Notes under the pieces: model-generated
The model's database searches: none
Seen by the model: only the letters and a program-made list of their open reading frames with translations
Told to the model about the DNA's origin: nothing
Position numbers and translations under genes: made by a program
Part shown: piece after piece, positions 16,320-36,204 of the stretch
Position numbering within the stretch: position 1 is the stretch's first letter
Layout of the letters: every line of letters starts with the position of its first letter
Source: Thermoanaerobaculia bacterium
GTDB lineage: Bacteria > Acidobacteriota > Thermoanaerobaculia > Multivoradales > UBA5704
DNA: 64,000 nt
Direction of reading: 5' to 3'
NCBI GenBank assembly: GCA_044226625.1
Contig: JBGAGQ010000004.1
Span: 32,001-96,000 of the forward strand

Positions 16320-19300
16320 TTACGGCCCCGGCGTCGCCGTAATCGCGCTCGGATCGGTGCTCAGCTTGCGCCAGTCGGTGACCGGGGTCCCTCCGAAACC
16401 GAGGCCGATCTTCTCTCCCGTCCGCTGGAACTTGTTCGGTACGTTCTGAGCCGGCGGGTAGTAGCCGATCTCCTGGCTGAACCCGATCACCTTCGCCTTG
16501 AAGAACTGGGCGACCGCTTTGAGGAAAGTAGCGTTCTGCCCGGAGTGGCAGGCGTAGAGGACGATCTCGGCGTCCGAGGTGAACTTCTTCTGGACGTCCG
16601 CGATCGTGAAAGTGGTCTTCTTACCGATCGGTTTCGGCGCGATGAACGTAGTGCCCGGTTGGTTGAGGCTCGTCATGCTCGCGGTGTCCATCGCGATCAG
16701 ACTGTTGTTCGGTGTGTTGATGTTCAGCAGGACGTCGGGCTTGGCGAGCGACATTTGCTTGATGCTGCCGCCGAAGGCAATCAGCCCTGAGTTCGCGTGG
16801 GTGAACAGGTTCACCCGTTTGACGGTGCCGTCACCCTCCTGGAGAATCGCGCCGAGCATCTCGGCGAACGTCGAGGCGACCGCGACGGTGCCGCCGGGCA
16901 CCGCGACGAAATCGTTCGTGCTCGGGCTCCACCGGCCCGCCGCGAGCTCGGCGATCTCCACCGCGTCGGTGATCGCCGGATCCCAGGAGAAATCTCCGGC
17001 GAGGTTCAACTCCTTGGTCTGGACGGTCTTCCCCGTTCCGGAGGCGCCGTCGAGCAGGTCCGCCGGAATATCCGTGGCAAAGCCGTCGATCACACTTCGG
17101 ATCAACGACGAGCGCGGCTCGCCGTCGCCCCAGGTTGCGGCGAGCGCTGCCGGATTTTGGGTGTAGCTCGCGGGAACGAAGCCGGCCGAAGCCATTCCGC
17201 CTCCGCTGCTGCTCCCGCCGCCCGATAACGGCGCCACGGCGCCGCCACCGGAACTGGAGGATCCCGCGGGCGCCTGTCCCTGGGTCTTGTCGAAGTAGTT
17301 GATCTTCGCGCCATCCTGCGAGTGGTTGCCGCCGCCGCTGATTCCCCCACCACCGCCTCCCGCGAGCCCGCCCGTGTACGCCGAGGCCGCAGTCTTCGCT
17401 AGGCTCGTGATCATCTCGGCGGCGATCCTCTGCCGCTCGGTATTCGCCTGGAGCAGGCTGTTCATGTTCGTACCGGCCTGCTGCCCGGCCGTCGCCGCCC
17501 CGGCCGAGGTCGCCTGCAGAGCGGCCTGGGCGAGCGCCAGCGTTCCTTGCAGGCCGCTCATATCGCGGAACATGCCGCCGTTCTGGATCGCCGCGAGCAC
17601 GGCCGCGGTGCCGGTCGGATCGGGCAGGCTCGCCGGGGTCGTTATGTTGATGATCGGGTTGCTTAGCTGGCCAGGTTTCACGTCCTCGTTCGTCGCCCGG
17701 CTGCCGGTCTGGATCACGGAGATCTCGGTCGGCTGGAGCGGGATCGGCGAGTCCTGCCAGTTCCAGAAACGAGTGATGTCGAGCTTTTCGGCGCAGTTCG
17801 AGCGGCCGAGCACCGCCTCGGCGAACGTGCCGCCCGAGGCGAGAGGCACGATGTCCTCCTTCGCGCTGCCGAGCCGAATGCCGTGGTCGCGCAGCCAGGT
17901 CGCCCAGCCCTCGTCGCTCGAGGCGTCAGTGTTCATCTTGAACGCGAGGTAGTTGCCCACGTAGCGGATCGGCTTCGGCTCGACCACTTGAGCGACCGGT
18001 ACCATCCTTCCGTTTATCTGGATGCCGTAGCCGGAGAGCAGGAGAGCGATCTGAGCGCCGTCGAGCGAGCGGAACACCGCGCGGCTGTAGTGCATCCGGT
18101 TGGAGTTCAAGTGTTGCTTCACGTTCGCGTTCACACCGCCCGGACGGATCTGCACCACCCGAGTCTCGCCGCCCGCTCCCTTCTTCACCGTGACTGCGGG
18201 CAGCTCGAGCGGGAAGCGCACGCCGTTGCGATTCAACGTGAGCGTCACCGTCGCCGAGACGTCGCGCTCGGAGCTGCTGCCGCTCAAACCGATCCGGCTG
18301 ACTTCCGAGAGGGCGAGGGGATGCTCCGCGCCCACCGCGCCGACCGCCGTACCCGTGAGGTTGCGGAACACGATCTTCATCGGCGTACCGCCCGCCGAGA
18401 CGACGCCCCCCTCGATCGCGACGTCGGTCGGCAGGTAGATCGAGCTCGTGTCGGGGCGCAGAACCGAGCGGTTGAGCAGGCCCGAGATCCGCGCCGATTG
18501 ATCGGCCGACCAGAGGCGGTCGTTGACCTGCTGGAACAGCGGCAGCACGTCGGAGGCACGGTACCTCACATTGCCGCCGCCGTCGGTGCGCAGCACCAAC
18601 GGCACAGGAGCCTCCACCGCCGCCGCGGGCTCGGCCGGCTCCACCGCAACGGCCAGCGCGGTGCGGCGGGGCATCGTGTAGCTGACGCCCGTCCGCGTCG
18701 TGAGCGCCTCACGCAAGAACGCACCCAGGGGGCTGCCGATGCCGGTGAAATGGGCCTCCGGCTCGGGCGCTACCTCGATGACGTCGAGGTTCAAGAGCGC
18801 TTCACGGATCGGGTAGGTGAGCGCGGCGCGCGCGAGCACGCCCTGGAACCGGCGGACCATCGCGTCGTCGTTCCAGTCGACCAGTTGCACCGGGATGAAC
18901 ACCACTTTGTCCGCTTTGACGATCGCGACCTCAACGCGGTAGACCTGCACCACCTCGTAGTAGTGGATGGTGAGGGCGTGCATGTGGTTGTAGTTCGCGA
19001 GCACCCGCGTGCTCACCCCCTCGTGCTCTCTTTGCGAAACCTCTTTGACCACCGAGGCACGCCGGCTCCGACTGCTGTGGGCGTGCTGGTGGGTCCGGTC
19101 GTTGACGCTCTGCATCATCGTGCTGCCGATTTCGCGGTGGCCGAACGAGGTGGAATAGCTGTCGGCGTGAGTGTCGGTGGTCGCCTCGCTGCTGGTGTGT
19201 CCCATCGAGCCGCTCGGCCCGCCGAACAGACCGCCGAGCGGCGCCGAGATCTCGCCCGCGGCCGAGGTCCCCTGCTCCGTCGAGCGGCTGTTGCTGTTGG

Positions 19301-21033: not shown

Positions 21034-24000
21034 TCATCCCAAGAACCCGAACGTCTCCACCGCCCGTGCCCGTCCCTCCCCCGCGTCGATCCGTTCGATC
21101 TCGGCGAGGTAAGCCTCCTCGAGGTTCGGTTCGGCCAGGTCACCTTGGATCGGATCTCCGGGGCGGGCGACGGCGCGGACTTCGAGGCCTTCCAGGCGCC
21201 GGACGCGGGCGGTGACGCGGTAGCGATGGCTAAACGAGGTCAGATCGGAGTCAGCGAGGAGCGCCGAGAAGACCTGGCCTCGGGCTCTTTCGAGGAGGGC
21301 GTCGGGGGCGCCGTCGAAGCGGAGTCGGCCGCGGTGGATCAGAAGGATGCGCGAGGCCGCGGCCTCGATGTCGCTCGCTATGTGAGTGGAGAAGAGCACG
21401 ATCCTGTCGGCGGCCTGTTCGAGAAGGATCTGGCGGAAGCGGGCCCGCGATTCGATGTCGAGGCCGGTCGTCGGCTCGTCGACGATCAGGATCGGCGGCG
21501 CGCCGAGCAGCGACCGGGCGATTCCGACCCGCTGCCGCATTCCACCCGAGAAATCGCGTACCTTCCGGCCGGCATGCTCGGCAAGGCCGACCGCGGCGAG
21601 CAGCGTTTCGATCTCCGCAGATCGCCTTGTCGGATCGTCGATCCGCCGCTCACGCGCCCAGTGATCGAGGAACTGTTCGGCGGTGAAATCCGGATAAGCG
21701 TTGAACTCCTGCGGGAGAAATCCGATTCGTAGCCTGTAGTCCGCGAGGTTCTCCGGCGTGACCTCGACGTTTCGGAAGGAAACCGAGCCGCGAGTGGGCG
21801 ATAGAAGCCCCGTGAGCAGACGGAGCAGCGTGGTCTTGCCCGCGCCGTTCGGCCCGAGCAAGCCGGTGATTCCGGGGGTGAGCTCGAAGCTCACCTGCCG
21901 GAGCGCCCGGTGGCCCGAGGAGTAGGTCTTCGCGAGACTCCTCACGGCGATCCGCGGCGGATCCACGCCCACCTCCGCGTTCCAGGCGGGAGGATGTCGG
22001 CGGCGGCGGTTCAACTCAGGATCCCGGGCCTGAAAGCGAGCGACCGCGAGGAGCAGCGGCGGCACTACGAGCAGGGCGACCGCGAGCGCGACCGAACCGG
22101 ACACGGCGGCGACGCGTAGCGGCACGACCCAGCGCGCGCGGATGAAATCGGCGCCCAGGGTGGGAAGAAAGCAAACGAGCGCGACCGGCACGAGCGCGCA
22201 GGTGAGCCACGGCGTCTCGCGGCGCAGCTGGCGATACACGCGATAGAGGGAGTCGGCGCCCGCCGACCGGACTCGCCGGCCGAGCCCGGATCCCGCATCC
22301 GCTGCCGCGGCCACCGTGGCTGCCTCCGCCGCCTCCGCCGTTGCGGGGAGAGACAGGCAGAGACTCGCGATCAAGGCGAGAACGGACAACTCGTCCACCT
22401 CGCCGAGGGTCGCCGCAACGAGCGGCGTCGCCGCGAGGAGGCCTGCCGCGAGCGGCACCAGGGCGACCCACGCCGCCAGGATCCCGTTCAGGCGCCAACC
22501 GGCGACCGCGAACAGCAGCAGCGGCACGGCGAGGCCGAACGCGAGAAGCCGTAGCCGCTCTTGTCGCCAGTAGAGAAACGACAACCGCGGCCGTTCGAGG
22601 TCGACCCCGGCGGGCAGCCGCAGACGCTCGAGCCCCCGGTCGACGTCCTTCCGTCGCAGGACGCGGGCATCGCGCGCCCCCTCGTGGAAACGAACCTCGA
22701 TCGGCACCACCCACCGACCGGACTGGCGTTCGACCCTCGGGATCACCGAGTCTTCCCGCAAGGCGAAAAGCGCGGCGGGCACGACCGTCCGGTCGCCGAT
22801 CGGCAGCGGCTTCGAGAGAAGCGACGCCATCTGCGGGATCTCGCGATCGGGATCGAGCGCAGAGCCCGCAGGCACGACGACCAAGGACCGCGAAACACCC
22901 CCGAGACCGGGGGAGAGCGGCCGCCGAGAAGGGGCGGTGCTCGCCAGAGCCAGGGCTCGAGTCACCGCGTCGACGTCGGTTCGGGAGGCGCTCGGAAGCG
23001 GCTCGAGCGTGAGCAGGGCCGAGGGGGCATCCCAGCCCGTGATCGATCGCGAGCGGATCTTGGCGTCGGCCAATCGGCCGAGAATCCGGACGTAGGCGGC
23101 CGACAGGGCCTCGAGGTCGCCTCCGCGCAGGACCATGCGATACCAGAGCGCCTCCTCGTCGGCTTCCGCTCGATCTTCAAGCTCGGCGGCGAAGGCTCCG
23201 GCGCCGGCCGCCCCCGCCCCGGTCTCGATGCGTGCCGAGGCCGCCGCAGGAATCTCGTACCGGAGGGTGGTCGCGAGCGCGGCCAACCGGTCGGGGCGCC
23301 GGTCGCTCGGGCGAACCTCCACTCTGAGGTAGGCATGTCCGGCGCGGAAGCTGCTCCAGTAGCGTTCGATCGCCCCGGAGCGATCGAGCCGGAGCTCGAC
23401 CGCCCGCACCTGTGTCGCGGTCTCTTCGAGCGTCGCGCCTTCGGGGAGATTCATTCGAATCTCGAAGCTGCCGCCGTCGGGCGAGAGATCCCCCGGACGG
23501 GGAACGAGCGCGCCGCCATAGAGCGCAGCGAGCAGTCCGCACACGGTCCCGAGGACCAGCACGGCGGTGCCCGGGTCGCGCAGCGTCCGCCGTAGCCAAG
23601 GAAGCGGCCCGGCGGTCAGCGCGCGCCATCCGGCGACCAGGGCGCGGCGCGGCGAATTCCGAAATTCGGCGGAGACACTTCGCGACACCGAAGCCCGAGG
23701 GCCGCTCCCTGACTCCCCTGATCTCGCGGGCGGTAGAGCGGCGGCGAGGACTGCTGCGGCGGCGGCGAGAAACAGGGCGCGCGCAGGCTCGGAAAGCAGC
23801 GGAGAAAGAGCGGGACCGGCGAAGGCGACGGAGGCCGGCAACGTCGCGGCGGCCAAGGCCGTGGTCAGCGCGAACGACCGATAGCCGCGGCCCCCTGATC
23901 GGCCCAGTCGGAGAGCGACGGCCGGGAGCGCCGCCGTAGAGCCGAGAAGGAGCGCCACCAACGTGGTCACATCGAGCGGAAGCCCGGCGAGCCAGAGCGC

Positions 24001-28205: not shown

Positions 28206-29350
28206 GGCGTCGGCTCTTTCGCCGTGCTCTCGGCGTCCTTCGGGCTGTCCGGGTTCTCCCGACTCGGCTCAGGCGTGGCGACGGCGGCCAGCGCATCCCC
28301 TTCCGCGAGCAAGGCGGCACCCGCGACCACGACCCGGTCGCCTGGCGAAAGGCCGCGCAGGATCTCCACCCGTCCGCCGCCGCGTGCGCCCGTTTCGACC
28401 GCCTGGCGGTGGGCGATGAGGCGCCCACGGGCCCTTTCGGCGACGAACAACGCACCCCCACCTTCCGCCAGCACCAGGGCCTCTTCGGGGACCGTGAGCG
28501 CTTGGTCGTGCCGGTCGAGCAAGACGCGGATCTCCACCCCTTCTCCCGGCGCCGGCAGACCCGTCGGGTTTTCCACTCCGATTACCAGGGCGACGGTTCC
28601 GCCGGCGTCGACCATCGGCGCCACCTCGAGCACGCGGCCCGAGCCGGTTTCCTCCTTTCCCGATCCGCTCAAAAAGCGCACGGCGAGCCCCGGATGCAAG
28701 CGGTCGCGATCGGCCGCCGCCGCGCGCCCCTCGACGCGTAACGCGCCGTCGGCGGCGACGCGCCCGAGGACGCTTCCCGCGGCGACCTCCGATCCCGGCA
28801 CGATGGGTTCCGAAATCACGAGGCGACCGGACAGCGGAGCCGTGAGCGACAGGCGACCGAGCCGGTTTTCCGCAGCGGCGAGGCGACCTCGGGCGAGATC
28901 GAGCTCAGCTTTGTAGGCGGCGAGCGTCACCGCCGGCTCGACCCCAGCATCGAAGGCCCGCTGGTGGCGCGCCACTTCCGACTCGGCGCCCCGAACCTTG
29001 AGGCGTGCCTCGGCGAGATCCGCCTCGACATCGCCGAGCGAAATGCGGGCGAGCACCTCCCCCTTCCTCACCTCAGCCCCGGTTGCCAGCCCGCCGGCGA
29101 ATCGCCCTGGATACGACAGCCGGCCGGCCAGGGGCACCGTCACCTCGGCCATCCCCCCCGGCCTCACCACACCGAGCAGCGAAAGTTCCGGCTCGAAGGT
29201 CGTGCGTCGGGCGACCTCCAACCTCACCGGAGCCGGCGGCGCCTCCTCGGAAGGTGGCGCGGGAGCCCGGCCGCAGGCGGCGAGGAGGATCAGCGCACAG
29301 AATCCGAGGGCACCAACGCGGGGGCGGGTTTTCATCGCAATCTCCGTCAT
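28202..29350 (-). CDS. RND periplasmic adaptor (MFP), lipoprotein
   Basis: Lipobox LLAAC, VRKGEVLARI, LTAPLSG, VPEEAL, VEILRGLSPGDRVV; ATGA overlap with upstream gene. Confidence 0.88.
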   Translation of the reverse strand: MTEIAMKTRPRVGALGFCALILLAACGRAPAPPSEEAPPAPVRLEVARRTTFEPELSLLGVVRPGGMAEVTVPLAGRLSYPGRFAGGLATGAEVRKGEVLARISLGDVEADLAEARLKVRGAESEVARHQRAFDAGVEPAVTLAAYKAELDLARGRLAAAENRLGRLSLTAPLSGRLVISEPIVPGSEVAAGSVLGRVAADGALRVEGRAAAADRDRLHPGLAVRFLSGSGKEETGSGRVLEVAPMVDAGGTVALVIGVENPTGLPAPGEGVEIRVLLDRHDQALTVPEEALVLAEGGGALFVAERARGRLIAHRQAVETGARGGGRVEILRGLSPGDRVVVAGAALLAEGDALAAVATPEPSRENPDSPKDAESTAKEPTP

Positions 29351-30042
29351 GACACGAGGGTCTCCGGCCGGCGCAAGCGACGGCGGGCGTAGAGGAAGAA
29401 GATCGAAGCGGCACCGAGGAGCACGATCGAATCGCCGAGAAAGGCGAGCGATTCCTCCCCGCCGGCGACCCAACCGTTCCAGACCGCGAAATGCCGGTCG
29501 GGGATCGGGTTCGAGAAGAACCAACGCGAGAAGGCGAGCACCGTCCCCATCGACGCGAGCCAGACCGCCCCGCCGCTCTTCGTGCGCACCGCCCAGAACA
29601 GCGCCACCGCGGCGAGGAACAACGAGACGATCGCGACCTTGACGAGCGCCGGCAGGAGCGGGAAACCGGTTCCCCCTTCGAACAGCCAGTCGAGCCCCAG
29701 AAGCAGCCATCCCTGGGCGCAGAGCACACTGGCCACCGCCGCCGCCCGACGAAGGAAGTACGCCTCAGCCGCCGGGGTGGTGAGCGCGAGATCGAGGCAG
29801 CCGGCCCGCCGCTCGACCTCGACGATGCCGGACAGCGCCGGCAGACCGAGCAGCAGGAACGGCGGCAGGACGACCCCCGACCAGACCGCCGCCGGCTCGT
29901 CCCCGTCGCCAAGCAACATCGACAGGAGCGCGGCCAGGATCACCAAACCATCGACCACCGCAAAGAGGACGAGACGGCGGCCGAGCAGCAGCTCGAGCGA
30001 CGACCGAAAACTCGCGAATCGGCTTCTCAATTGGCGCCGCAT
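29347..30042 (-). CDS. ABC-2-type permease-like membrane protein
   Basis: ~6 TM segments, EVERRAGCLDLALTTP ABC-2 motif. Confidence 0.7.
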   Translation of the reverse strand: MRRQLRSRFASFRSSLELLLGRRLVLFAVVDGLVILAALLSMLLGDGDEPAAVWSGVVLPPFLLLGLPALSGIVEVERRAGCLDLALTTPAAEAYFLRRAAAVASVLCAQGWLLLGLDWLFEGGTGFPLLPALVKVAIVSLFLAAVALFWAVRTKSGGAVWLASMGTVLAFSRWFFSNPIPDRHFAVWNGWVAGGEESLAFLGDSIVLLGAASIFFLYARRRLRRPETLVS

Positions 30043-32901
30043 CTAACGCACTCCGTTGAAATAGACCCGGTCGCGCGGCACGCCCTTCCGGACCAGGCGA
30101 TGGCATTCCTGATCGGGATCGAGGAAGACCCCTTGCGGCCTGTGGCTGGAGGTGAACGCGAACGACGCGCGGGTGCCCGTCTCGGTCCGCACCTCGGTTT
30201 CCGCCGGCCCGAGATCGGTCGTGAGCACGAGGCGACAGATCGACTCGCCGTCACCCAGATTGTGGACCTGCCCGGTAACGCGCCAACCGCCCCCAGCCGG
30301 CTGGAGGACCACCTCTTCGAGCACCAGCTCGGGAAGACGGCCGGCGACGAAGAAATCGCGGATCATCGGCCGGACGTCGCGCTCGCTCCGGCGCTCCAGA
30401 ATCGCCGCCAGCTCGGCGAATCTCGCCGGGGTTTCGGCGTGGGCGGGTCCCGGCGCGAGCAGCTCCTCGATCGAGGCGCGAAGCGCCTCGGCTCCAGCTC
30501 GCCGGCCGAGCGCCGAAACCAGGGCTGGGAAGCGGTCCTGCCAATACGAGTAGTTCTTCGGATCGAGGGCTGCGTCGTGGACCGCGTCCATCCGCCCGAG
30601 GGGTAGAGGCCCCACGACGGCGCCGGAAGGCGATCCCAACCCGAGACGCTCGAGCACCAGGGTCCGTAGGAGCTGGCGGAAAAACAGCGACTCCTCCGGT
30701 GCGAACCGTCGCCGCCGCAGCAGGCGCGAAGTGACGATCTCCGCCGCCAAACGCTCCGGCGGCAGAGGCTCCGTTCCGATCAGGTCCACCTCTCGGACGA
30801 AGGCAAGGTTGCCCGCGACCCCGATCCACGAATCGTAAGGATCGCGCCAGCGATTGGTGAGCAGGCTCTGATGGTTCCTTTCATGGACCCCCTCGTCGGG
30901 CCATTCGAGGAGGATCAAGCCACCTCGACCCGTGGCTTCGCGCGAGCCGCCCCCGGGCCACGCCTCTTCCATTCGCTGCGCGCTGCCGGCGAGCGAGCCG
31001 AGATGGAGCTCCCCCGGCGCCCGATGGGCCGGGAACACGGCGACCGCGATTCCGCTCCCGGCCGGTCGCGAACCCGCTGCATCCGACAACAGGCGCTGCC
31101 GCCCACCACGAACCGTAAGCTCGGCGAGTGGGAGCGTGCAGGCGCTTTCGAGCCGCCCGTCGCGACCGCCTTGCTCGGAGCTGCGCCCTTCCGGATCGGC
31201 GAGGCCGCCACAGCTGTCCGCGACGAGCAGGCCGCGCGGCACCCCGAGCGATACCGACAGCCGCGTGGCGGGGAAGAAGACCTCCGGCGGAGGGTTTCCG
31301 TCGGCGTCCGGCGCGAAGCTCGAATAGCGCGGAACGGGAGTGAGAGCCTCGGCCGGAAGATCGATCCTCACGCCGGAGACCGCGGGAACCTCGTAGCTCC
31401 AGGAGAGATCGTAGCGATCGTGCCCGAGGCGGACTTTCCGGTTCCGGTCGAAAGCGTGCGCGAACGAGGCGAGATCTCCCCCCTGCCAGGGAGGAAGGTT
31501 GAACTTTGGCGCCCCGGGGCGCCCCTGGATCTCGAACCGCAGCTCGCGGGAACCCCCGGGCGGAATCGGCGGATCGACCTCCGCTTCGAGCCGGTCCCAG
31601 GACCGCCGCAGCCGCACCGTCCCCCGGTCCGCCGAAGCCGCCCGCACGGCGACCTCGGGGTTCAGCGAAAGCGCGAGACGCCGCTCGGGCTTTCGGCCGT
31701 CGTTCCTGAGCACGCCGCGGACGGACACCTCCATCCACCCCTGCCGGCCGAACGCCCCCTCGATCCGCCAGCTCTCCGGCGCGAGCGTCACCGCGGTGGG
31801 CGCCGGCCAGGCGGAGGTCTCGGTCCGATAGCGCCGCGCACCGAGCGCGTCGTAGCCGAGCCAGCGCTCCGTTTCGAGCGCGACGGCCCCGGCCGCGAGG
31901 GCAAGGGCCAAACCGAGCAGGGTGAGGTCCGCCGGTCCTGGCGCCGGGTCGGGCGTATACCGCTCGCGCAGCCGGCCGAACGAGACGAGGAAATTGCGCA
32001 GCGGATGGTCCATCTTGACCGCGCGCGGCGGCACGTCCGGCCGGGTTCGGCGCAGGTAGAGCGTCGCCACCCCAAGCGAGGTCGCGGCGGCCGCCCAGAG
32101 CAGGAGCCCCTGCGCGAGGCTTTGCTCGAACGCGGTCGACGCGTCGAACCCCGCCTCGCTCTCAGGAAGTGGGAAGAGCCAGTTCCACCGGTCGTCCCCC
32201 TCCTGGAACGACTTGACCATCAGGAGCGTCGTCCAGCGCGCGGACACGACGTCCAGGAGCCCGAGCGGCGCGGCGAAGCGCATTCCGAACCGGTTCAAGA
32301 TCTCGTTGCCCGCCGCCGGAACGGCGCCGAAGGTCACCAGAAGCAGGAGGAAGACCTCCGCCGCCGAGCCACCGATCGTTCCCACGCCGAGCGCGAGAGC
32401 CGCGCTCGATGCGGCGAGCGGCGCCACGTGGAGCGCCCACGGCCCGACGAACCGCACCGGGGAAAAGAGTGTCCAGCGCTCCGCCCAGCCGGCGCCTCCG
32501 CCGTCGAACAGGGCGATGCCGGCGGCCACGACGAGCGGCAGCGCGGTGAGCGGCAGCACGATCGCAAGCAGCGACACATAGCGCCGGAGCAGGTATCCAG
32601 CGTTGCTCAAGCCTGAGAGCGTCGCCGTGGTCCATGCTCCGGTGGCGCGTTCCCGGCCGATGCCGTCCATCGCCAAGAGGAAGGCGAGGAGCGCTGAGCA
32701 AAGCGGCAGCACGCCGAGCGTCGCGCTCGCGTAGGTGGCGCTCCCTATGACGTAGTCGAGATGCGGGCGGCGCAGGTGGATCGCTACCGCCGGGACCGAG
32801 CCGAGCAGCAGGAATCCGACGGCGAAAGCGCGCACGCGGAGCGAGCGCCGCGCGATACGCAGCTCGTGACCTAAGAACGCTTGGAGCGTCGCCCCTTTCA
32901 C
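30043..32901 (-). CDS. ABC-2 permease fused to M1-aminopeptidase-like ectodomain lacking HEXXH
   Basis: N-terminal TMs with GRERATGAW motif; large soluble region ending in M1-like PMIRDFFVAGRLPEL...VFLDPD; LAAEIVTSR in place of HEXXH. Confidence 0.7.
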   Translation of the reverse strand: MKGATLQAFLGHELRIARRSLRVRAFAVGFLLLGSVPAVAIHLRRPHLDYVIGSATYASATLGVLPLCSALLAFLLAMDGIGRERATGAWTTATLSGLSNAGYLLRRYVSLLAIVLPLTALPLVVAAGIALFDGGGAGWAERWTLFSPVRFVGPWALHVAPLAASSAALALGVGTIGGSAAEVFLLLLVTFGAVPAAGNEILNRFGMRFAAPLGLLDVVSARWTTLLMVKSFQEGDDRWNWLFPLPESEAGFDASTAFEQSLAQGLLLWAAAATSLGVATLYLRRTRPDVPPRAVKMDHPLRNFLVSFGRLRERYTPDPAPGPADLTLLGLALALAAGAVALETERWLGYDALGARRYRTETSAWPAPTAVTLAPESWRIEGAFGRQGWMEVSVRGVLRNDGRKPERRLALSLNPEVAVRAASADRGTVRLRRSWDRLEAEVDPPIPPGGSRELRFEIQGRPGAPKFNLPPWQGGDLASFAHAFDRNRKVRLGHDRYDLSWSYEVPAVSGVRIDLPAEALTPVPRYSSFAPDADGNPPPEVFFPATRLSVSLGVPRGLLVADSCGGLADPEGRSSEQGGRDGRLESACTLPLAELTVRGGRQRLLSDAAGSRPAGSGIAVAVFPAHRAPGELHLGSLAGSAQRMEEAWPGGGSREATGRGGLILLEWPDEGVHERNHQSLLTNRWRDPYDSWIGVAGNLAFVREVDLIGTEPLPPERLAAEIVTSRLLRRRRFAPEESLFFRQLLRTLVLERLGLGSPSGAVVGPLPLGRMDAVHDAALDPKNYSYWQDRFPALVSALGRRAGAEALRASIEELLAPGPAHAETPARFAELAAILERRSERDVRPMIRDFFVAGRLPELVLEEVVLQPAGGGWRVTGQVHNLGDGESICRLVLTTDLGPAETEVRTETGTRASFAFTSSHRPQGVFLDPDQECHRLVRKGVPRDRVYFNGVR

Positions 32902-33809
32902 TCCGACATCCCATTCATCTCGTCCGAGGCTCCGCTGTCCGCCAGACCGCGAAGCGCGAGAAACGCGCCGTACGCCTCTTCAAGGCCGGCCGGCCGCGGC
33001 GCGGCGCCTTCGATCGGCGTCTCGGAGTAGACCACCCGCTCGATCGCGCCGAGCCGATCGGCGCGATGCGTGACCTCCACCGCCTCCGGCGGAAGCGGTA
33101 TCCCCACGGGGAGACGGAAAAGGCGGCCGTTCGCCCCCTCGAGTAAGCGGGTTGGCGTGCCGTCGAAAAGCAGGCGACCTCTACCGATCACCACCAAGCG
33201 CGGGCATGTGGCCTCGACGTCCTCGACGATGTGGGTCGACAAGAGCACGGCGGTCTTCTCGGCCACCTCGGCGATCAGGGTGCGGAAGCGAATCCGCTCC
33301 TCCGGATCGAGCCCGGCGGTCGGCTCGTCGACCACCAGCAAGCGCGGAGAGTGAATGATCGCCTGCGCCACGCCGAGACGACGCTGCATGCCGCCCGAGT
33401 ACTCGATCGCTCGCCGGTCTGCGGCCTCGGCGAGCCCCACCGCGGCCAGCAGATCGCGCACCCTGCGTTCGAGGGCGCGCCGGTCGAGCGGCACGCCGCG
33501 TAGGCGGGCGAGGTGATGCAGATACTCACGCCCGGAGAGACCGGCGAGCGGTCGGTAGTCTTGCGGCAGATACCCGATCGAGGCGCGGATCGCCGGCCTC
33601 GAGCGCGCCCGCGCGGCGTCCAGACCGTCGTAGACGCGCCGTCCGGCTGTCGGCTCGAGGGCAAGCACCAGCATCGACAGGAACGTCGTCTTGCCGGCGC
33701 CGTTCGGGCCCAGCAGGCCGACCATCCCGCGATCCAGACGCAGGTCGACGCCGCGTAGCGCCTGCGTGCCGTCCGCATACGTCTTTTGAAGCCCCACCAG
33801 CTTGATCAC
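32898..33809 (-). CDS. ABC transporter ATP-binding protein
   Basis: GPNGAGKTT, YSGGMQRR, VVDEPTAGLD, LSTH. Confidence 0.95.
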   Translation of the reverse strand: MIKLVGLQKTYADGTQALRGVDLRLDRGMVGLLGPNGAGKTTFLSMLVLALEPTAGRRVYDGLDAARARSRPAIRASIGYLPQDYRPLAGLSGREYLHHLARLRGVPLDRRALERRVRDLLAAVGLAEAADRRAIEYSGGMQRRLGVAQAIIHSPRLLVVDEPTAGLDPEERIRFRTLIAEVAEKTAVLLSTHIVEDVEATCPRLVVIGRGRLLFDGTPTRLLEGANGRLFRLPVGIPLPPEAVEVTHRADRLGAIERVVYSETPIEGAAPRPAGLEEAYGAFLALRGLADSGASDEMNGMSE

Positions 33810-33935
33810 CGATGCGTCGCCTCCGGCTCGACTGCGTGCATCAGTGTACTACGGTCCTGATACGCCTGATGTTTGGAAATTCCACAACCGAGATCGGCGA
33901 AGACCGCCGGCCCGGTCAGAACACACTAGAAACCG

Positions 33936-34796
33936 CTAGGGGTGATCGAGGTGGGAGAGAGCGCTCGCCGTCGGCAGGGCGACGCTCGAGCCTTCCTGTG
34001 CGAACTGCGGCTCGTCTGCGGCGCAATGACTGGGACGGAGCACGGCGAAGGGATTGATCGGCTGGCCAAGCCAGGAGGACCTCTCTTCGGGCAGCCGATA
34101 GATCGCGAAATGCAGGTGGGGAGACCCCTTCGGCGCGTTGCCCGAGGTGCCGACATAGCCGATCACCTGACCCCGCTCGACGGCCTGGCCGGCGGCGAGC
34201 CCCGGAGCGTAGCGCTCGAGGTGGGCGTAGTAGTACGCGTACTGGCCCGTCGGGTCGAGCTGATAGAGGGTGATGCCGCCGAGGCGGTTGTAGGTGAGCT
34301 TGACGATCGTGCCGTCTTCGATCGCCAGGATCGGTGTGTTGCGCGGCGCCATGATGTCGATCGCATGGTGCGTCCGGCCGCCGCTCCGCCGCTGGACGAA
34401 AGAATCGCGCAGCTGACTGCGGACGATCCCCAGCACGGGGATCAACAGCGACTTTCGCGCGAGATCGGGATCGTTCGGCAGGTCGGGAAAGCAGAGGGAG
34501 GCGGGGGCGGCGGGAGGTTCAGCAAGGGGCGCGACTTCCGGAGCGGGGATCGCTTCCGGAGCGATTTGCGACTCCTCGGGCGGCGCTTCAGAGAGGTTCG
34601 TTCCCACGGGGGCGTCGCCGCTTGGCGGCAGCAGCACCACCGAGCCCGTGGCCTCGAGATCACCGGGAGCGGCCGAGGTCTCCTGGGAGAGCGCTGGGAC
34701 CGTCGAGTAGAGCGTCGCGCAAAGCACGGTCGCGCATACGGCGAAAATGGGCCGCAAGATGCCTAGTGGCGAGGTGAATTTCGTCCTTTCGGGCAT
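33936..34796 (-). CDS. Secreted M23-family metallopeptidase
   Basis: Signal peptide; HHAIDI (HxxxD), YYAHL, PHLHF (HxH). Confidence 0.9.
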   Translation of the reverse strand: MPERTKFTSPLGILRPIFAVCATVLCATLYSTVPALSQETSAAPGDLEATGSVVLLPPSGDAPVGTNLSEAPPEESQIAPEAIPAPEVAPLAEPPAAPASLCFPDLPNDPDLARKSLLIPVLGIVRSQLRDSFVQRRSGGRTHHAIDIMAPRNTPILAIEDGTIVKLTYNRLGGITLYQLDPTGQYAYYYAHLERYAPGLAAGQAVERGQVIGYVGTSGNAPKGSPHLHFAIYRLPEERSSWLGQPINPFAVLRPSHCAADEPQFAQEGSSVALPTASALSHLDHP

Positions 34797-34995
34797 TTCG
34801 AGGGCTCGCCCTACCGTTTTCCGGCGAGGCGCGGATCATACCCGACGTCGCGATTCGGTCAACCCGACCGATTGGGCAGGGTCCGAAACGCCGAGGGTCG
34901 ATGCGCGGTGCCGGCGCGGATGAAGCGTGGCCCCAAGCGTGGCCTGCGCATGGAAGAATGACGAGAATCGCACGACCTCCCACGAGGCCTCTCCG

Positions 34996-36204
34996 ATGAC
35001 CGAACCCCTCACCCAGCAGCGCATCTCACGCAACTTCTTCGTCTTCATCCTGATCGCGACGACCGCGTTCTTCTTCTACATGGTTCGGGATTTCCTGATC
35101 CCGGTCCTACTCGCGGCGGTCGTATGTACCCTGCTCGCGCCGACCTACGACGCCCTGGTGCGCAAGACGAAAGGGCGCCGAGCCCTCTCGGCCTTCCTCT
35201 GCTGCCTGCTGGTGGCGATCGGCCTGGTGGCGCCGTTTTACTGGGTCGGAAATCTGGTCGCTCATGAGGCGCTCGACTTCTACAACTCCTCGGAGGGGCA
35301 GGTCCGCAACTTCTTCGAGCAAGGGGACGCCGGCCCTCTCGGCGCACTCAAGCGCTCGGCCTGGGTTCGCGACCTCCACCTCGACCAGTTCGACTGGCGC
35401 ACCGGCGCGCAGGACGTGGCGAAGACCGCCGGGACCTTTCTAGCGAACGTGATCAAGGTGACGTCCTCTGGGACGATCCAAGTGTTCGTCCTGCTCTTTC
35501 TCACCCTGTTCACGATGTTCTACTTCTTCCGGGACAGCCAGAAGCTGGTCCCCCGGCTGAAATACCTGGTCCCCCTTCCCGAGGATCATCTCGAAGCGAT
35601 CATCGCCCGCTTCTCCTCCGTCGCGCGGGCGACCATGAAGGGCACGCTGGTGATCGCCCTCGTCCAGGGGAGCCTCGCCGGCCTCACCCTCTGGGCGTTC
35701 GGCATCGACGGGGCGATCCTCTGGGGGGTGGTGACGACCATCCTGTCGATCCTCCCCGTCGTCGGCGCCTGGCTGGTTCTCTATCCCGCCGCGGTCTTCC
35801 AGCTCCTCACAGGCCATGTCTGGCAGGGGATCGCGATCATCATTCTCACGACGGTGGTGATCGGCAACATCGACAACTTCATCCGCCCCCGTTTAGTCGG
35901 CCAGGAGGCGGGGATGCATGACCTCATGGTCTTCTTTTCGACCCTGGGCGGCATCGCGGTGTTCGGCGCGATGGGGTTCATCGTCGGCCCGGTGGTGGCC
36001 GCCCTGTTTCTCGCGGTGCTGGAGATCTATGCCGTCGAGTTCAAGGACGTGCTCGACGGGCTGAACGTCTCGCGCGGAGAGCCCACGGCCGATCAACCGT
36101 CGGGCCAACTCTCGCCCCAACTGACGAATCCAATCGCGGATCAACCGTCGGACGAAGCGCCGGTTCAGGCGTCGACCGCTGGGGCGAAGCGCTCCGAGGG
36201 ATAG
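34996..36204 (+). CDS. AI-2E family transporter
   Basis: Multiple TMs, [27 protein letters not shown]. Confidence 0.9.

Follow-up and report, generated by a model that had tools for sequence, protein, structure and literature searches.

The trans-envelope engines of diderm bacteria are usually treated as separate, with resistance-nodulation-division (RND) pumps running on protons and ATP-binding cassette (ABC) transporters running on ATP. Pumps of the MdtABC-TolC and MuxABC type use two RND paralogues, as in the MdtB2C heterotrimer of E. coli. Among the ABC systems, NosDFY(L) delivers copper and NosY acts by moving its periplasmic partner, and MacB has a type-VII fold with four helices and an ATPase fused to the permease. 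Moreover, an ABC-2 permease with a C-terminal Peptidase M1 was catalogued in 2013 as TCDB 3.A.1.145 (Q1D520 of Myxococcus xanthus); the consulted part of the source gives it 13 predicted helices, describes it as a zinc-dependent aminopeptidase and does not report RND genes (PMC3924187). In our study we analyzed a 64,000-nucleotide stretch of DNA from a Thermoanaerobaculia bacterium (contig JBGAGQ010000004.1, positions 32,001 to 96,000), hereafter the window, which is part of contig C84 in the 6.6-Mb genome bin of an uncultured soil-type bacterium. Six minus-strand open reading frames (ORFs), named A to F, run head to tail in this order from position 33809 to 21034, and in them the RND and the ABC engine are welded together, an arrangement that is kept in many lineages. 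We lean towards the reading that the six genes encode a single composite envelope export machine, with F as a scaffold that holds a second ATPase against the RND pump. The case for one assembly is built on a covalent fusion of the two sides, on a conserved set of components and on an RND body in F that is degenerate yet maintained.

Gene A (32898-33809) encodes a free-standing ABC ATPase of 303 residues, a DrrA/GldA-like nucleotide-binding domain (NBD) of the ABC-2 type. It is followed by B (30043-32901; 952 residues), an ABC-2 permease with an M1 fold, and by C (29347-30042; 231 residues), a small NosY-like permease of type V. The adaptor D (28202-29350) has 382 residues when counted from the ATG at 29350 that overlaps the stop of C, E (25131-28205; 1024 residues) is an RND permease and F (21034-25134; 1366 residues) an RND paralogue fused to an ABC ATPase. 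The first-pass annotation had described the six genes as translationally coupled by overlaps or a 0-bp gap, and all five junctions were found exactly as it gave them: GTGA between A and B (32898-32901), TAG directly followed by ATG between B and C (0 bp, 30042/30043), ATGA between C and D (29347-29350), GTGA between D and E (28202-28205) and ATGA between E and F (25131-25134). We compared 29 distinct relatives (loci L011-L043 minus six duplicates, plus L053 and L054), and the order A-B-C-D-E-F was complete in 24 of them. In the remaining five the operon is cut by contig ends, and every gene that fits is present and in order. If the start codon nearest to the upstream stop is taken, a 4-bp overlap is possible for A/B in 23/28, for B/C in 25/29, for D/E in 22/27 and for E/F in 19/25 relatives; such tight packing is more than chance. 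The C/D junction is looser (-4 in four and -1 in eight of 28 relatives). For five genes that flank the operon in the window, tblastn (E<=1e-8) detected no copy next to the operon in any of the relatives. Therefore, the six genes form a self-contained unit. Loci found via F always contained A-B-C, and loci found via B always contained D-E-F where the contig allowed it. ABC and RND halves occurring apart, the observation that had been named as speaking against a single system, were not seen among these loci.

The B-based locus search, which used an 11-row alignment, reached only records of Thermoanaerobaculia or Acidobacteriota, titled for instance 'Thermoanaerobaculia bacterium' or 'Acidobacteriota bacterium' and with environmental-metagenome titles. 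Two of the relatives deviate in their reading frames. In genome G023 the adaptor and the RND protein share a single, uninterrupted reading frame of 1336 codons (L021:6479-10489, minus strand), and the F match falls into two pieces (residues 2-944 and 964-1355), the second with one TGA. The joining of the adaptor with the RND protein and the splitting of F could be a real fusion and fission or assembly errors. Locus L016 (G022:C1:601600-619500) has its matches to B, C and E scattered over different frames, which could reflect frameshifts, pseudogenisation or sequencing errors.

The physical tie between the RND and the ABC side is F, since it carries both domains in one frame. Residues 1-1045 (22000..25134, minus strand) comprise a strongly diverged yet complete RND paralogue with 12 helices, the probable scaffold subunit, which was recognized by alignment with E (hhalign of F 3-993 with E 9-1003: 99.8%, E 1.8e-29, 913 columns, 22% identity). 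Residues 1046-1061 (21952..21999) are the end of a short linker of about 30 residues between transmembrane helix 12 (TM12) and the ATPase. A conserved RDPE...PPAW motif is located just upstream of and inside this segment, and P1048 and W1051 are invariant in 16 sequences. The second ABC ATPase with all its catalytic motifs intact comprises residues 1062-1366 plus the stop codon (21034..21951). The single frame of 1366 codons runs full length in three congeneric genomes (about 70% identity) and in genomes of other genera and families (38-53% identity), and the domain junction is also covered, at 21831-22328, by a contig of another, independent sequencing project. The RND-ATPase fusion read from the window at first pass is thus real and conserved. 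Apparent contig joints with sides of 20-28 letters were disregarded as cross-matches. A database search with F yielded 245 relatives at E<=1e-3 among 8000 scored proteins; among the matches listed (the best 120) nearly all have 1255-1434 aa and carry both PF00873 and PF00005.

The two parts of F differ in their state of preservation. ACR_tran matches F with 57.4 bits over residues 2-175 only, and a phmmer search of the RND part against PDB sequences returned two weak rows (E 0.049 and 0.96). The mean pairwise identity within F is 70% for the NBD versus 40-47% for every RND region. The membrane bundles of F are no better conserved than its loops, and those of E are the best-conserved part of E (73-75%), where only the contrasts within each protein count as the two alignments have different rows. 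Nevertheless, the RND body of F retains invariant periplasmic motifs. The canonical relay of AcrB- and AdeB-like RND proteins, as described in the AcrB literature, comprises two Asp in TM4, a Lys in TM10 and an Arg in TM11. F has a Pro at the TM4 Asp site and no equivalent of the Lys in TM10. Judged from these alignments F is devoid of any proton-relay residue and, as far as these positions tell, cannot be a proton-driven subunit of the usual kind.

E is a full-length RND permease (ACR_tran 455 bits, residues 1-1012) whose best solved relatives are AdeB, MexB, MdtB and AcrB. Its relay is altered as well. Aligned with AdeB (6ows), E has Asp-Ser in TM4 instead of Asp-Asp and an Asn in place of the Lys in TM10, and it retains the Arg in TM11. 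This pattern, with Ser or Asn following the Asp in TM4, was found in 10/10 orthologues, and on account of the missing residues E is, by alignment, at least unusual in its energy coupling. The sibling proteins E' and F' of the second operon variant described below share the Asp-Asn in TM4 and have no Lys either, so that the relay change is clade-wide. Other RND genes of the genome that encodes E are canonical, with the Asp-Asp pair (contigs C10, C110 and C123) and the Lys (C110 and C123). The first-pass annotation had overlooked both the degenerate RND half of F and the non-canonical relay of E. In its layout the locus resembles MdtABC, where the adaptor gene is also followed by two tandem RND paralogues in one operon, one of which is presumed to be specialised. 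Our locus departs from MdtABC in that its second paralogue lacks the relay and ends in an ABC ATPase, the operon also encodes an ABC-2 transporter, E is without the canonical Asp-Asp/Lys relay and no outer-membrane factor gene is located nearby.

Both ATPases appear complete. The free-standing ATPase A matches ABC_tran with 92.4 bits, and among the NCBIfam models drrA and GldA fit best, with neither reaching its cut-off. The translation of A shows Walker A, the Q-loop, an SGGM signature, a Walker B with DEPT and the H-loop. The tail of F matches ABC_tran with 111.6 bits (residues 1078-1223), and its Walker A, Q-loop, SGGM, Walker B and H-loop are invariant in 16/16 sequences. Both domains end in LEEAY and share 42% identity over 286 residues (E 1e-52), which agrees with the early description of two paralogous ATPase domains; the motifs quoted there are present. 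In a tree of 20 ATPase domains, unrooted and computed without an outgroup, the A type and the F type part on one branch with a support of 92/92. Both sides of this branch contain the operon variant of the window as well as a second variant described below. The two-ATPase design hence predates the split of the variants, and the two ATPase types have long been retained side by side.

B and C themselves match no Pfam or NCBIfam family, and their nature was therefore established by scans of orthologues and by structure prediction. Among 11 orthologues of B, ABC2_membrane_2 matches four (best E 6.3e-7), ABC2_membrane_3 matches six and Peptidase_M1 matches none. An exhaustive profile search with B gave 165 representative proteins at E<=1e-30 and 887 at E<=1e-3. 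The AlphaFold2 model of B, computed from an alignment of 87 rows, reached a predicted local distance difference test (pLDDT) of 91.9 and a predicted template modelling score (pTM) of 0.90. In this model residues 1-361 (31819..32901, minus strand) comprise an amphipathic N-terminal helix, an ABC-2-type domain of six membrane helices and a seventh helix (323-361) that leads to the periplasm. A domain of 590 residues follows (residues 362-952, 30046..31818). Foldseek matched this ectodomain to ERAP1, IRAP and ERAP2 (E 3e-13, about 640-670 columns, 8-11% identity), and VIA aligned model residues 363-943 with LTA4H (Z 20.1, 384 residues, root-mean-square deviation 4.1) and with ERAP1 (Z 19.8, 455 residues). 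HExxH is found in 2/87 members of the B family, at different and unaligned columns, and GxMEN in none of the 87. The HERNH at residue 673 was rejected as a zinc motif because it is an unconserved chance match. By its predicted structure the ectodomain of B is thus a catalytically dead M1-aminopeptidase fold without a zinc or catalytic site, and the pseudo-peptidase suspected from the sequence is borne out by the match to the M1 fold together with the missing motifs. The seventh helix and two near-invariant cysteine pairs (Cys564/588, kept in 83 and 84 of 87 members, and Cys889/933, kept in 81 and 76 of 87) suggest that it is periplasmic.

Similar domain arrangements are known from TCDB 3.A.1.145 where, according to the consulted part of its source, an ABC-2 domain also precedes a periplasmic M1-type domain and an ATPase gene of the ABC-2 type is found upstream. 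Unlike the catalogued system as that part presents it, B has seven helices, neither a conserved HExxH nor GxMEN, and is always located beside an RND module. Outside the window, an ABC-2-type ATPase gene followed by an open frame of 1226 codons was observed in the same genome (L056, G000:C133:37185-41825). This frame matches the B ectodomain weakly (E 2.5e-5), and L056 probably represents another ABC-2::M1 system that consists of two genes and resembles TCDB 3.A.1.145.

For C, a model based on 28 rows reached a pLDDT of 85.3 and a pTM of 0.83 and shows six helices. The best Foldseek matches were NosY chains (template modelling scores 0.56-0.62, E 0.04-0.2). In VIA type-V ABC membrane domains occupy each of the top 21 rows (Z 8.6-14.7, 185-220 of 231 residues aligned), among them ABCA3 (Z 14.7), NosY (Z 14.2, 213 residues), PmtCD, CcmB, ABCG2, Wzm and LptF/G; these values are to be read with the caveat that the E-values exceed 0.01 and that helical bundles reach Z of about 13 by arrangement alone. 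From these structural matches to type-V membrane domains, C is by its modelled fold an ABC-2 (type V) permease, which is in line with its first designation. NosY (PDB 7o0y and 7znq) is among the closest solved folds to C and lies within 1 Z of ABCA3, ABCA4 and PmtCD. The likeness to NosDFY extends to a type-V ABC module that acts on a large periplasmic partner domain. However, NosD is a separate beta-helix protein and not an M1 fold joined to the permease, and the Nos system has no RND or adaptor partners. A complex prediction of B residues 1-365 with C scored 0.00 in two runs with the controls not folded, which speaks neither for nor against a contact of the two.

The adaptor D matches RND_mfp (TIGR01730) with 119.2 bits, above the cut-off of 94.9, and HlyD_3 and HlyD_D23 as well. 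It is probably a lipoprotein, since its signal sequence ends in LLAAC. An adaptor that points toward an outer-membrane duct is shared with MacAB-TolC (reviewed in PMC5985334 and PMC8277102), in which an ABC transporter with a periplasmic domain works by mechanical transmission of ATP energy. Unlike MacAB, our locus has type-V permeases, and its adaptor is of the RND type and paired with RND proteins. The first-pass annotation had noted that the operon has no TolC-like gene, and TolC/OEP PF02321 indeed has no match on C84; ten other contigs of the genome do match. In five relatives no OEP gene was found within about 80 kb of the operon, or it was located on another contig. A TolC-type partner encoded elsewhere is possible.

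The same set of components was also found in a second arrangement. Among 301 evenly sampled Acidobacteriota genomes only five contain the short F type, and all five belong to the class of the window; a hit required TM8-12 and the NBD to share one frame. Several other families in the sample have frames of 1560-1770 residues that end in a related ATPase. Three of these loci (L050, L051 and L052) have the order NBD, permease (1150-1180 aa), adaptor, RND, RND::NBD (1560-1604 aa), with the long fusions at L052:2708-7471 (minus strand), L050:11537-16351 (plus strand) and L051:10244-14926 (plus strand). Their permeases carry ABC2_membrane_2 and Golvesin_C, one with a weak Peptidase_M1 match, and lack HExxH and GxMEN. 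The sibling B' of L050 reaches 29.5 bits against a cut-off of 27.2 for the ABC2_membrane models. After the long fusion a six-helix protein of 237-243 aa is encoded that has the same ExxG-type motif as C. It aligns with C over the whole length in L052 (hhalign 79.7%, E 1.5e-5, 217 columns) and weakly in L051 (2.3%). The idea that C represents the excised extra helices of the long fusions was dropped because hhalign against 26 of these fusions gave a probability of 0.3%. The list of components and the two ATPase lineages are identical in both forms, and the recurrence of the six parts in another gene order points to selection on the set rather than to a frozen string of genes. The forms differ in several respects. 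Extra membrane helices lie between the RND part and the NBD in the long form and not in the window, and the first strand of the NBD and its Walker A are split by about 180 residues in the long form, whereas the NBD in the window is contiguous. The long fusions are fully canonical by ACR_tran (491-611 bits) in contrast to the degenerate RND body of F, the long-form permease ends in Golvesin_C, which has no match in the window form, and the small permease gene follows the fusion instead of lying between B and D. The window locus is therefore a distinct, streamlined variant of a hybrid ABC-RND system that is unpublished as far as our searches go, and its ATPase-bearing RND subunit has probably become a scaffold.

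A search with the long form gave 4294 proteins at E<=1e-3 among 7998 scored. Among the matches listed (the best 120), all have both domains and most have 1524-1667 aa, with 13 shorter or partial records, and the source names comprise Gemmatimonadetes, KSB1, Calditrichaeota, Fidelibacterota, Latescibacterota, Bacteroidetes and Acidobacteriota. Clusters with ACR_tran and ABC_tran are also present in Bacteroidota of the ESM Atlas. In the long fusions the first NBD strand has the consensus I.I.NLTKIYG and is followed by about 180 residues with membrane-like segments before Walker A, and two further membrane-like segments follow TM12 of the RND part. Membrane helices inserted in the first hairpin of an ABC ATPase are odd in themselves.

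Based on these components, we suggest how a single machine could work. By analogy with MdtB/MdtC, E and F would form a mixed RND trimer in which F is a non-pumping scaffold subunit that holds the second ATPase at the trimer's edge. This ATPase would pair with A beneath the permeases B and C, so that the ABC module would attach laterally to the RND trimer. With an E2F1 composition there would be exactly one fused ATPase for one A, one B and one C, an attractive stoichiometry that we purely infer. ATP hydrolysis would move the periplasmic domain of B in a NosDFY- or MacB-like mechanotransmission. The B domain would capture the substrate from the periplasm or from the outer leaflet of the inner membrane and hand it to the porter domain of E, which would expel it via D and a TolC-type channel encoded elsewhere. 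As a first guess, the cargo could be a peptide-like molecule because of the peptide-binding ancestry of the M1 fold.

Several points weigh against this proposal. The fusion in F is the sole evidenced contact of A, B and C with E and F, and the mixed E/F trimer would be drawn solely from the analogy with tandem paralogues. An A homodimer might serve B and C on its own, as in many ABC systems with two permeases, which would leave the ATPase of F without a proven partner. The membrane domain of B reaches only 13.8 bits in the Pfam ABC2_membrane models against a cut-off of 31.6. In a profile comparison C and the B membrane domain gave a probability of 5% (E 0.0077), and the homology of the two permeases is not significant at this level, with the alignment pairing a common ERRAG...YFLRR-type motif. 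Moreover, a proton drive of E is not certain given its lack of the second TM4 Asp and of the TM10 Lys, which favours the main rival, an ATP-energised RND pump. Here the F ATPase, either dimeric within an E1F2 trimer or acting with A, would directly drive the RND cycle and replace or supplement the proton motive force, and A, B and C would be a feeder or regulator. This explanation gains weight from the Asp/Lys relay missing across the clade, in F entirely, in E of 10/10 orthologues and in E' and F', next to otherwise canonical RND genes in the genome, and from the short TM12-NBD linker with its conserved motif. Yet E retains the TM4 Asp and the TM11 Arg, which may be enough to couple it to protons, the two ABC-2 permeases, each with an amphipathic helix at the N-terminus, need ATPases, and the three-fold RND trimer is a poor fit to a two-fold NBD dimer. 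ABC ATPases act via coupling helices of ABC-type membrane domains, and we know of none in RND proteins. On balance we regard an RND pump driven in this way as unlikely.

Two independent pumps that are merely co-transcribed, an ABC-2 exporter of A, B, C and the F ATPase and an RND pump of D and E with the RND body of F as an anchor or remnant, would explain why this body is so degenerate, with its short Pfam match and its nearly blank search against the PDB. ABC-2::M1 proteins are, moreover, known as two-gene units without RND genes, as far as the consulted part of the source goes (TCDB 3.A.1.145, PMC3924187). A remnant of a thousand residues, however, would not have persisted across families as an uninterrupted frame of full length that still aligns with E over 913 columns, nor would it be expected to keep invariant periplasmic motifs. 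The six parts also stay together where their order differs, and the long-form fusion has a canonical ACR_tran domain of 491-611 bits, so that we consider this explanation quite improbable. The least weight is given by us to a machine that handles envelope components without exporting anything, where the ABC module would work the dead-peptidase domain for their maturation, insertion or extraction, and the RND proteins and the adaptor would be a bridge to the outer membrane. Systems to compare would be NosDFY, LolCDE and FtsEX. The fold relatives of C and B include NosY, CcmB and LptF/G, none of which is a transmembrane pump for solutes, and no TolC gene was found in or near the operon in 6/6 genomes checked. 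D is nevertheless a standard RND adaptor above its family cut-off and E a full-length efflux-type RND protein, which fits the composite export machine better than a handling device.

No description of an RND protein fused to an ABC ATPase was found in the literature searched, a selection that was incomplete, and a term search in part of a 2021 Chem Rev review also found none. A search for golvesin returned Dictyostelium cell-biology papers only. This kind of hybrid pump thus appears never to have been studied. An ATPase-carrying F that has lost its own engine is a natural experiment on an ABC motor bolted to an RND trimer. Solving the system would show how transporters of different energy source couple and which role the widespread dead M1-peptidase domains play on ABC permeases, and thousands of proteins annotated simply as 'efflux RND transporter permease subunit' would gain a function. 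An RND part that runs on two energy sources or on ATP alone, in which the pair of A and the F NBD would power the ABC-2 permeases as well as the conformational cycle of the RND trimer with F as a pure transmission element, is a rather doubtful though not far-fetched prospect. If true, it would be a mode of coupling unknown for any RND transporter, in a clade that as a whole gave up the Asp-Asp/Lys relay.

With regard to the surroundings, no regulator had been seen next to the operon, and its flanks indeed encode an M23 peptidase, an AI-2E transporter, an AAA/R3H protein and an F420-type oxidoreductase-like protein. The secreted M23 peptidase (33936-34796, minus strand) has a signal sequence and HxxxD and HxH motifs and is located 126 bp upstream of A. 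The sole promoter-like site of the region, which is sigma-70-like (34835-34862, minus strand), lies upstream of this gene. The position of the site suggests that the M23 gene may be co-transcribed with the operon, although it was not found beside the operon in any relative. Downstream of F an ORF of 1305 codons (window 16320-20237, minus strand) has DUF4347 below the threshold as its sole family match and is not conserved beside the operon. Within positions 20000-35500 no Rfam family matches, and terminator-like sites occur at chance level (eight found versus 8.6 expected). Besides, the operon differs from its flanks in base composition, with a G+C content of 0.70-0.74 (window 22001-32000) versus 0.65-0.67, and its plus strand shows a strong AT skew of 0.12-0.30 over the same positions.

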